DNA from: Dipteris shenzhenensis
Taxonomy: Eukaryota
DNA: 64,000 bases
Strand: one strand, 5' to 3'
Assembly (NCBI GenBank): GCA_047967505.1
Contig: CM106538.1
Shown here: positions 23,220 to 23,935 of the stretch, piece by piece
How the letters are laid out: the number at the start of each line of letters is the position of its first letter
Position numbering within the stretch: position 1 is the stretch's first letter
Notes under the pieces: generated by a model
The model's database searches: none
Seen by the model: the letters and a program-made list of their open reading frames with translations, nothing else
Told to the model about the DNA's origin: nothing
Made by a program: the position numbers and the translations under genes

Positions 23220-23935
23220 CTAAGTTCCCCTGGGCTTCCTAAGACGTACAATAAATTGCATGTCTATAGCGGTCACGGTGACCCTTTTCCTATGAATGGC
23301 AGCTAACTAGATGTAATCCATGAGGTCTACTAGTAGGTAGGCCTTAGATGCATGCTACAGCGCAAGCAAGGCATCTCTAGAAATACGCCAGGGAGCCTCC
23401 ACAACTCTGCGCCTAGAAAACCAAGACATTGGGTTAAGGTTGAGGTCCTGGATGACCTCGCGTACCACCCTTGCGAAGCTGGCCATCAGGATGAGCAGAT
23501 CAATGGACTTCTGAAACTTTCTGATCTCCTGAAGTGCCACTGTTCCTGGCTTGAATCTGTACCACCTCACTAGAGGAGGGCCTCATCCTGGATGTTGAGG
23601 GCCTCTTTGACCTGCACTTGGAGCTCTGGCACCTCTCCCCCGTTGGCGTGGACCCTGATTGTTTGTTCCTGCCTTGGTCCTCTGGTCTGTTCTTCGTTGT
23701 TCCTCTTCCACACACTCCTCCTCTGTGCTCTCGAAGTCATCCATCTCTATCATAGGATCTTCTTGTGCCTTCCTCTATCCCCCTTACTCCCTATCCGGCT
23801 TTTGGATTGGTAGTTTCTCCCTTCGGCGAGGATCATTGGGGGGAGAGGGGGGGGGCTATCACTCTCTGTCTCTGAGTCTGGAGGTGGGTCTGGCTATGCC
23901 AGTCTCTGTGGTGCCTTGATCTTGGGCCTGGCCAT
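23220..23935 (-). pseudogene. divergent histone H3 variant with CENH3-like features (~238 aa reconstructed, intronless; 6 C>T-type stops, 1 homopolymer frameshift)
   Basis: MARPKIKAP start; histone fold [39 protein letters not shown][19 aa][48 protein letters not shown] aligns with H3 [37 protein letters not shown]...ALQEA.EAYLV.LFEDTNLCAIHAKRVTI..KD.QL.RRIR. Confidence 0.9.

Follow-up and report, generated by a model that had tools for sequence, protein, structure and literature searches.

The window analysed here, by which the whole stretch of 64,000 nucleotides of contig CM106538.1 from Dipteris shenzhenensis (assembly GCA_047967505.1) is meant, contains the pseudogene of a histone H3 variant at positions 23220..23935 on the minus strand. 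In a three-frame reading from 24000 to 23150, the gene starts with an ATG at 23935, from which MARPKIKAPQRLA is read, and its frame closes at a TAG at 23220-23222, after six in-frame stops and one frame change. Four of these stops belong to the N-terminal tail (TAG at 23894-23896, TAA at 23784-23786, TAG at 23775-23777 and TGA at 23583-23585) and two to the histone-fold domain (TAG at 23355-23357 and at 23307-23309). This domain, extending from alphaN to alpha3 at 23223..23567 of the minus strand, is read in a single frame across its two stops, and therefore no intron is present. The protein used for searches was a read-through with the stops given as X. Its C-terminal 120 residues were recognized as the H3 fold by Pfam PF00125, with 73.7 bits (cut-off 26.4) and E 1.9e-20, and matches to 172 distinct sequences were found in the PDB, the best 60 of the 172 all being named as H3 or an H3 variant (H3.Y), at E of about 3e-18. 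Seven queries all led to this one locus, the single H3 copy in the 64-kb window. The H3-fold gene is real, and it is an intronless, decayed and strongly diverged variant. The initial annotation, which had read an H3 gene through six stops and one frame change and had called it intronless, was confirmed in these respects. An AlphaFold model of the fold of this copy was too poor for use (pLDDT 49).

The alignment by HMMER to H3 chains from the PDB places a 14-residue insertion in loop 1 at 23394..23435 (minus), in agreement with the earlier count of 19 loop residues instead of 5. The replacement of canonical Q68, F84 and T107 by A, I and I was likewise found again, both in the PDB alignments and in a separate alignment (A3), where alpha-2 of the window copy is also one residue longer than in all 20 other rows. 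The C-terminal end reads RLRKPRGT and is followed by the TAG, with a weak GFN past the stop. Beyond this terminal TAG, the frame stays open to about 23007, and the TAG at 23220-23222 could be a seventh nonsense change.

The N-terminal tail (23586..23935, minus) is rich in proline, acidic and Arg-Gly residues, its reading being uncertain owing to four stops and the frame change. It starts with MARxK, as is usual in plant H3-type proteins, and a second segment resembling an N-terminus, REKLPIQK, was found within it; past the MARxK start, only gaps and low-confidence columns represent the tail in the PDB alignments. One frame change is required somewhere in 23856-23752. A run of nine C residues at 23842..23850 (minus) is a candidate site, and a slip in this run had been proposed before. 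The frame change itself was borne out, but an imperfect repeat found in the tail at a distance of 40 nt, with a score reached by 6 of 500 shuffles, may account for it instead.

A TATATAAG box is located at 24068..24075 on the minus strand, 133 nt 5' of the ATG, with a CT-rich leader between them at 23936-24040. Sites of this type occur seven times on both strands of the window, against 2.5 expected, two of them within an LTR pair; the chance of a correctly oriented site so close to the ATG is, by our estimate, about 0.01. The proposal that the gene has its own TATA-like promoter thus received support. A direct repeat with 12 of 13 identical positions (AAATCCCTAA.TT), found at 23214..23226 on the left and at 24082..24094 on the right, brackets exactly the GC-rich gene unit of 0.85 kb. 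The repeat may have arisen as a target-site duplication around the gene unit alone, or by chance, about five such pairs being expected by our estimate in the 2.1 kb searched. The GC content is 51-55% at 23300-24050 and about 54% in the H3 gene, compared with 31-35% in the flanks and 42% in the adjacent transposase gene. No match to the H3 flanks was found elsewhere in the window.

Regarding the features by which processed pseudogenes are recognized, the gene is intronless and has a TATA box instead of being promoter-less, no poly(A) tract was seen in the window sequence downstream of it or beside the 3' repeat, and the flanking repeat is perhaps a matter of chance. Because the poly(A) tract is absent and a promoter is present, this is not a classical processed pseudogene, and the TATA box makes a promoter-less retrocopy disfavoured. 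The origin as a LINE-mediated processed pseudogene of a multi-intron host CENH3 gene was nevertheless considered. It agrees with the absence of introns, with the presence of the CenH3 sequence features given in excerpts of PMC7598501 and PMC4359364, with the retained MARxK start known from plant H3-type proteins, and with the short flanking direct repeat, which could be a target-site duplication. However, the TATA box lies inside the flanked unit, there is no poly(A) tract beside the 3' repeat, and the nearest proteins are only about 50% identical, with 42% identity to the grass CENH3-like protein P0003. In our opinion, such an origin is very unlikely.

The H3 gene is situated between two genes of transposon type. 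On one side, a decayed transposase-like gene with the domain DUF7869 (PF25273, 95.2 bits against a cut-off of 26) occupies 19773..22689 on the plus strand, with two in-frame stops and two frame changes; its end is 530 nt from the H3 stop. In comparison with P0302, an intact protein of 1069 residues, it comprises pieces corresponding to residues 6-81, 221-437 and 439-1065, the residues 82-220 being missing, and the identity in the main piece is 57%. The DUF7869 protein is presumed to be a transposase because its acidic motifs are conserved and its clusters are repeat-like. No relative of P0302 was found by a sequence search of the PDB, and DUF7869 was not mentioned in the literature searched. 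The C-terminal module of the DUF7869 proteins (GDFVLVRP...YPIWLGVA...LIQYWAP; approximately residues 940-1000 of P0302 and 22312-22490 of the window) is conserved and looks like a small barrel of the chromatin-reader type, which would be of interest given the adjoining histone gene.

On the other side, 5' of the H3 gene and on the same minus strand, a second transposon-type ORF (ORF3) is present in pieces at 24506..26804; it ends some 430 nt before the TATA box, at a distance of about 0.6 kb from the H3 gene. No Pfam or NCBIfam family was matched by ORF3. A language-model search with its 141-residue piece gave Plavaka and Transposase_21 as leads (0.97 and 0.95), with recognition below the usual level.

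The DUF7869 gene is immediately preceded by an array at 18121..19668, in which a palindrome of 24-26 nt (GAGAATGGCACTAGTGCCATTCTC) is repeated, and related arrays occur at 4540-11500 and 14912-15022. These arrays are satellite-like and consist of the near-perfect palindrome GAGAATGGCACTAGTGCCATTCTC and its variants; the motif has 25 matches in the window against 0 expected and does not recur to the right of 19668. They may be subterminal binding sites of the DUF7869 element that have grown into an array of roughly 7 kb.

The whole window bears traces of cytosine deamination. The observed/expected ratio of CpG is 0.34, and those of CAG and CTG are 0.66 and 0.56, with 1.18 for TAG and 1.25 for CTA. 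Such depletion of CG and CWG sites points to CG and CHG methylation followed by deamination, presumably in a plant genome. RIP was excluded as a source of the stops by dinucleotide indices that are not RIP-like (TpA/ApT 0.70; (CpA+TpG)/(ApC+GpT) 1.56). Deamination at CG and CWG sites across the window would account for C-to-T stops in the H3 gene, where TAG makes up four of the six. The earlier description of the stops as C>T-type thus agrees with the signature of the window, but a C>T origin is directly supported only at the stop at 23355, because glutamine is nearly invariant at this position in the relatives.

The two neighbouring genes have decayed to different degrees. Among stop-prone codons (CAA, CAG, CGA and TGG, together with the stops themselves), 6 of 24 were converted in the H3 gene and 2 of 65 in the DUF7869 ORF (Fisher p 0.004). 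The H3 copy, being more decayed, was therefore either dead already in the lineage of the element or older than the element, which argues against the two genes being co-functional when this copy originated.

A word-index protein search with the window copy gave four weak matches. In one of them, P0005, the region from alphaN to alpha1 is 70% identical and the long tail is of acidic/arginine composition. P0003, the sole grass CENH3-like protein retrieved, was 42% identical. An exhaustive protein search retrieved 6813 proteins at E up to 0.001, with concatenated canonical H3 models at the top; the nearest proteins were only about 50% identical to the window copy. No named host gene of such a type was found among the 5.8 billion clustered proteins. 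The matches of the exhaustive search included P0019, P0021 and P0023, which have a long loop 1. A profile built from these three proteins and the window copy retrieved a family consisting of P0019, P0021/P0156, P0187, P0023, P0189-P0195 and P0062, with scores from 307 to 170 bits, whereas ordinary H3 variants scored about 150 bits; a two-domain canonical H3 model among the profile matches was discounted.

The proteins of this family are intact, have 153-217 residues and come from ENA, Logan and NCBI assemblies. They share the MxRxK start, a short tail that is proline-rich and acidic, A at the position of Q68, a loop 1 of 24-25 residues in 11 of 12 rows (20 in P0023), and a C-terminal extension after alpha-3 with the motif RR(I/F)RNN.DAF. 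The AlphaFold model of P0189 has the H3 fold, with a mean pLDDT of 72 (the helices reaching 80-94, the loop insert about 56) and Foldseek TM-scores against nucleosomal H3 of 0.75-0.87, normalised to the target.

Clusters of 21, 10 and 6 sequences were found at >=90% identity, truncated members being included. Within them, full-length members were compared: 12 of 21 in the first cluster (25 variants; 21 singletons, 15 compatible with C>T/G>A, 16 in the tail), 8 of 10 in the second (31 variants; 19 singletons, 12 compatible, 11 in the tail) and 5 of 6 in the third (20 variants; 6 singletons, 4 compatible, 5 in the tail). Judging from these sequences, the family has the look of a methylated repeat that was amplified recently. 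Within clusters, evidence for selection on the fold is mixed, because no concentration of variants in the tail is seen in clusters 2 and 3. Long-term constraint is argued from the subfamilies, since intact ORFs of long-loop variants that are 45-67% identical to each other have been retained. These long-loop H3 variants are apparently an undescribed family of a repeat-like nature.

Other collections were searched as well. When an atlas was searched with P0189, only generic clusters of H3 and CSE4 were obtained. A metagenome scan with P0191 gave 80 loci, and among the best 45 of these 80 none had the C-terminal tail of the family, and a long loop was present only in L007, the C-terminus of which differs. 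At positions 1-495 of its 1.5-kb contig, L007 carries another GC-rich gene without introns, for a CenH3-like protein whose loop 1 is long (HDEVAYEFNRYHRGRERMQATRW) and whose end is an ordinary RRIRGERE; long loop-1 inserts therefore arose in more than one H3 lineage. A scan of viral contigs gave 45 loci with 29-64% identity, no closer than cellular H3.

The window copy probably belongs to the long-loop family, as far as can be judged from the alignments. It resembles the family in the H3 fold, loop length, A at Q68, the MxRxK start and the proline-rich, acidic tail; its loop 1 has 24 residues by the rule that gives 24-25 for the family and 10 for P0043, with the alignment columns in register. 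The tail after the frame change aligns with the N-termini of P0019 and P0187 (z 3.7 and 4.2; scores reached by 1 and 0 shuffles out of 300, respectively). Of the 16 tail comparisons, the remaining 14 were not significant except for one with z 3.0. The similarity in the loop sequence itself is weak: the best z value for a member of the family, among 21 parsed comparisons, was 2.1 (P0156; p 0.043, uncorrected), and the comparison with the short loop of P0074 gave z 3.6. Differences consist in an identity of only about 45-50% between the window copy and the family, in the C-terminal extension RR(I/F)RNN.DAF, which is absent from the current reading of the window copy, and in the placement of this copy with P0043 in a tree.

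A quick tree of 147 rows did not resolve the position of the copy. In a careful tree of 47 rows, the 12 rows of the family form a clade (99/93) without the window copy, which is paired with P0043 (bootstrap 99, SH-aLRT 74), a short-loop H3 variant of 281 residues sharing RI.RDALLA and the C-terminal RLR.PR end with it. The branch of the window copy is long in these two poorly resolved trees (1.44 and 2.11, the latter in the 47-row tree), and when the copy is forced into the family, the log-likelihood falls by 8.7 units; at a p-AU of 0.255, this placement is not rejected.

The locus had initially been described as having CENH3-like hallmarks. According to excerpts of PMC7598501 and PMC4359364, the sequence criteria for CenH3 include a loop 1 longer than in canonical H3, and the excerpt of PMC4359364 gives residue positions 69, 85 and 118. 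The window copy has in common with CENH3/CENP-A a divergent N-terminal tail (in an uncertain reading), a longer loop 1 and the loss of Q68, F84 and T107. To this extent the description holds, but such criteria measure how far a protein has diverged from canonical H3 and apply to every strongly divergent H3. The copy differs from CENH3 in being intronless and in its 14-residue loop insertion, which is far longer than that of plant CENH3, where only a few residues are inserted. In the phylogeny of H3 and CENH3 proposed as a check, the window copy was paired with P0043 and did not join P0003; this was, however, the only CENH3-like row, and the trees were poorly resolved and the branch of the copy long. 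The CenH3-like features are read as general divergence and not as evidence of a centromere role. As this locus demonstrates, an H3 pseudogene perhaps unrelated to centromeres can have the sequence features by which CenH3 is usually recognized.

Summarizing the data on the gene and its surroundings, we tentatively favour, at somewhat less than even chances, the explanation that the locus is a dead copy of a strongly diverged H3 variant carried by a transposon; both the travel with a transposon and the membership of the long-loop family are inferred. The variant would have been an intronless gene that kept its own TATA promoter and was brought in by a DNA transposon that had captured it ("transduplication"), in the form of a GC-rich unit of about 0.85 kb between the DUF7869 transposase-like gene and the second transposase-like ORF. 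The ancestral protein would have paired with H4 via a normal H3 fold, its loop 1 being about 14 residues longer than the canonical one. After silencing and methylation of the copy, C-to-T deamination at CG and CWG sites would have produced the TAG, TAA and TGA stops. In favour of this explanation, both transposase-type genes are within about 0.5-0.6 kb of the H3 gene, the unit is complete with its promoter and has no poly(A), and its relatives are repeat-like.

The adjacency to transposases is weak evidence in itself, because the whole 64-kb window is transposon sequence and a single locus is concerned. The H3 gene may instead be a bystander, that is, a dispersed pseudogene of a host H3 variant that originated by DNA-level duplication or as a non-canonical retrocopy, with the transposase genes as unrelated younger insertions. 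We regard this as rather unlikely. It is in line with the wall-to-wall transposon content of the window and with the greater decay of the H3 copy relative to the DUF7869 ORF, which is expected of a copy that predates its neighbours. The window was found to contain neither terminal inverted repeats nor shared termini around the H3 gene together with either transposase gene, and the 12/13 direct repeat surrounds the 0.85-kb unit alone, as if this had been inserted by itself. Moreover, non-canonical retrogenes without poly(A) or target-site duplications predominate in gymnosperms, according to an excerpt of PMC13477047. On the other hand, no recognisable element ends lie between the H3 gene and its two close neighbours, the relatives are represented by many near-identical and partly truncated copies in the manner of repeats, the clustered proteins include no named host gene of this type, and the direct repeat may be a chance occurrence at the estimated frequency of such pairs. 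Relatives of DUF7869 or ORF3 were absent from the 80 metagenome H3 loci, ten longer H3-containing proteins had no transposon domain, and the comparison of contig sizes between members of the H3-family and DUF7869 clusters gave one coincidence (3911), which is expected by chance and is too short for both genes at the spacing seen in the window. The claim of a histone variant encoded by a transposable element is partly supported, by the position between two transposon-type genes, and is weakened by the greater decay of the H3 copy than of the DUF7869 ORF.

Stronger versions of the transposon-cargo explanation were also considered. A plant DNA-transposon lineage might keep its own selected H3 variant, with a loop 1 about 14 residues longer, an extra C-terminal tail and its own promoter, which is incorporated into nucleosomes and allows the element to escape silencing or to choose insertion sites; the clusters of intact long-loop variants would then represent living copies and the present locus a dead member. 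Such a scheme is improbable on the data available. A selected CenH3-like histone, encoded by a transposon lineage and serving it as a decoy against silencing or in centromere targeting or drive, with this locus as a decayed copy, is the most improbable of all the schemes considered here, in spite of the CenH3 sequence features, the own promoter, the position between two transposase-type genes and the deeply diverged intact long-loop subfamilies that keep the fold (45-67% identical). It is opposed by the faster decay of this copy than of the adjoining transposase gene, by the lack of specificity of the sequence criteria for centromeric function and by the tree, which does not place the copy with the grass CENH3-like P0003.

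Histone variants are normally host genes. Nevertheless, the capture of H3 genes by transposons has already been published for fungi and gymnosperms. In Dothideomycetes (Pseudocercospora fijiensis and Pyrenophora tritici-repentis), H3 was captured and amplified by hAT transposons and inactivated by C-to-T changes, according to an excerpt of PMC6710886. The likeness to the present locus, as far as this excerpt goes, concerns the position of H3 beside DNA-transposon genes, the C-to-T inactivation and an island in AT-rich surroundings. In these fungi, a canonical housekeeping H3 is concerned, in a defined element with termini and decayed by RIP, whereas the window copy is a diverged long-loop variant with DUF7869 and Plavaka-like neighbours, not hAT, and plant-type CG/CWG decay, and its capture is presumed. 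In gymnosperms, histone H3 is named as an example of genes duplicated through capture by transposable elements (PMC13477047, excerpt), and these plants share with the window, to judge from this excerpt, a genome rich in old transposons. A literature search for transposon-encoded histone variants gave nothing more specific, and the phrases "transposon-encoded histone" and "TE-encoded histone" were not found among the papers listed.

If a transposon indeed maintained its own H3, mobile DNA would have a new means of acting on chromatin, with a bearing on silencing, on the choice of insertion sites and, less likely, on centromere biology. More modestly, the data demonstrate a dead H3 variant in a transposon cluster, together with an apparently undescribed long-loop family. 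In our opinion, it is this long-loop family that most deserves to be pursued.

The remainder of the 64-kb window consists of copia elements, a DUF4218 fragment, LTR pairs and tandem arrays; an Rfam search gave no match. Two copia copies (1-4402 and 42573-46975) share 95% identity along 4.4 kb, three copies of a 258-bp LTR piece with 99.2% identity occur at 4144-4401, 38189-38446 and 46717-46974, and a third, different copia element lies on the minus strand at 47100-51400. The DUF4218 fragment at 36507-36839 (minus, E 1.9e-13), which we take to be a domain of CACTA-type TNP2 transposases, is a further remnant of a DNA transposon. Direct repeats of 361 bp at 15110-15468 and 17770-18130 are 98.6% identical, stand 2.66 kb apart and each contain TATATAAG; the pair looks like a small LTR element within the palindrome array.

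Tandem arrays of an approximately 178-bp repeat were found at 27415-28713 (7-8 copies) and 59586-60644 (about 6 copies), inverted relative to each other and 31 kb apart. Each array is followed by a 1-kb GC-rich stretch (29084-30052 corresponds to 58955-58014 at 84% identity), within which a weak RING-finger ORF is located at 29638-30285. The two arrays with their 1-kb stretches look like one end of two copies of another element. The monomer of about 178 bp is nucleosome-sized.
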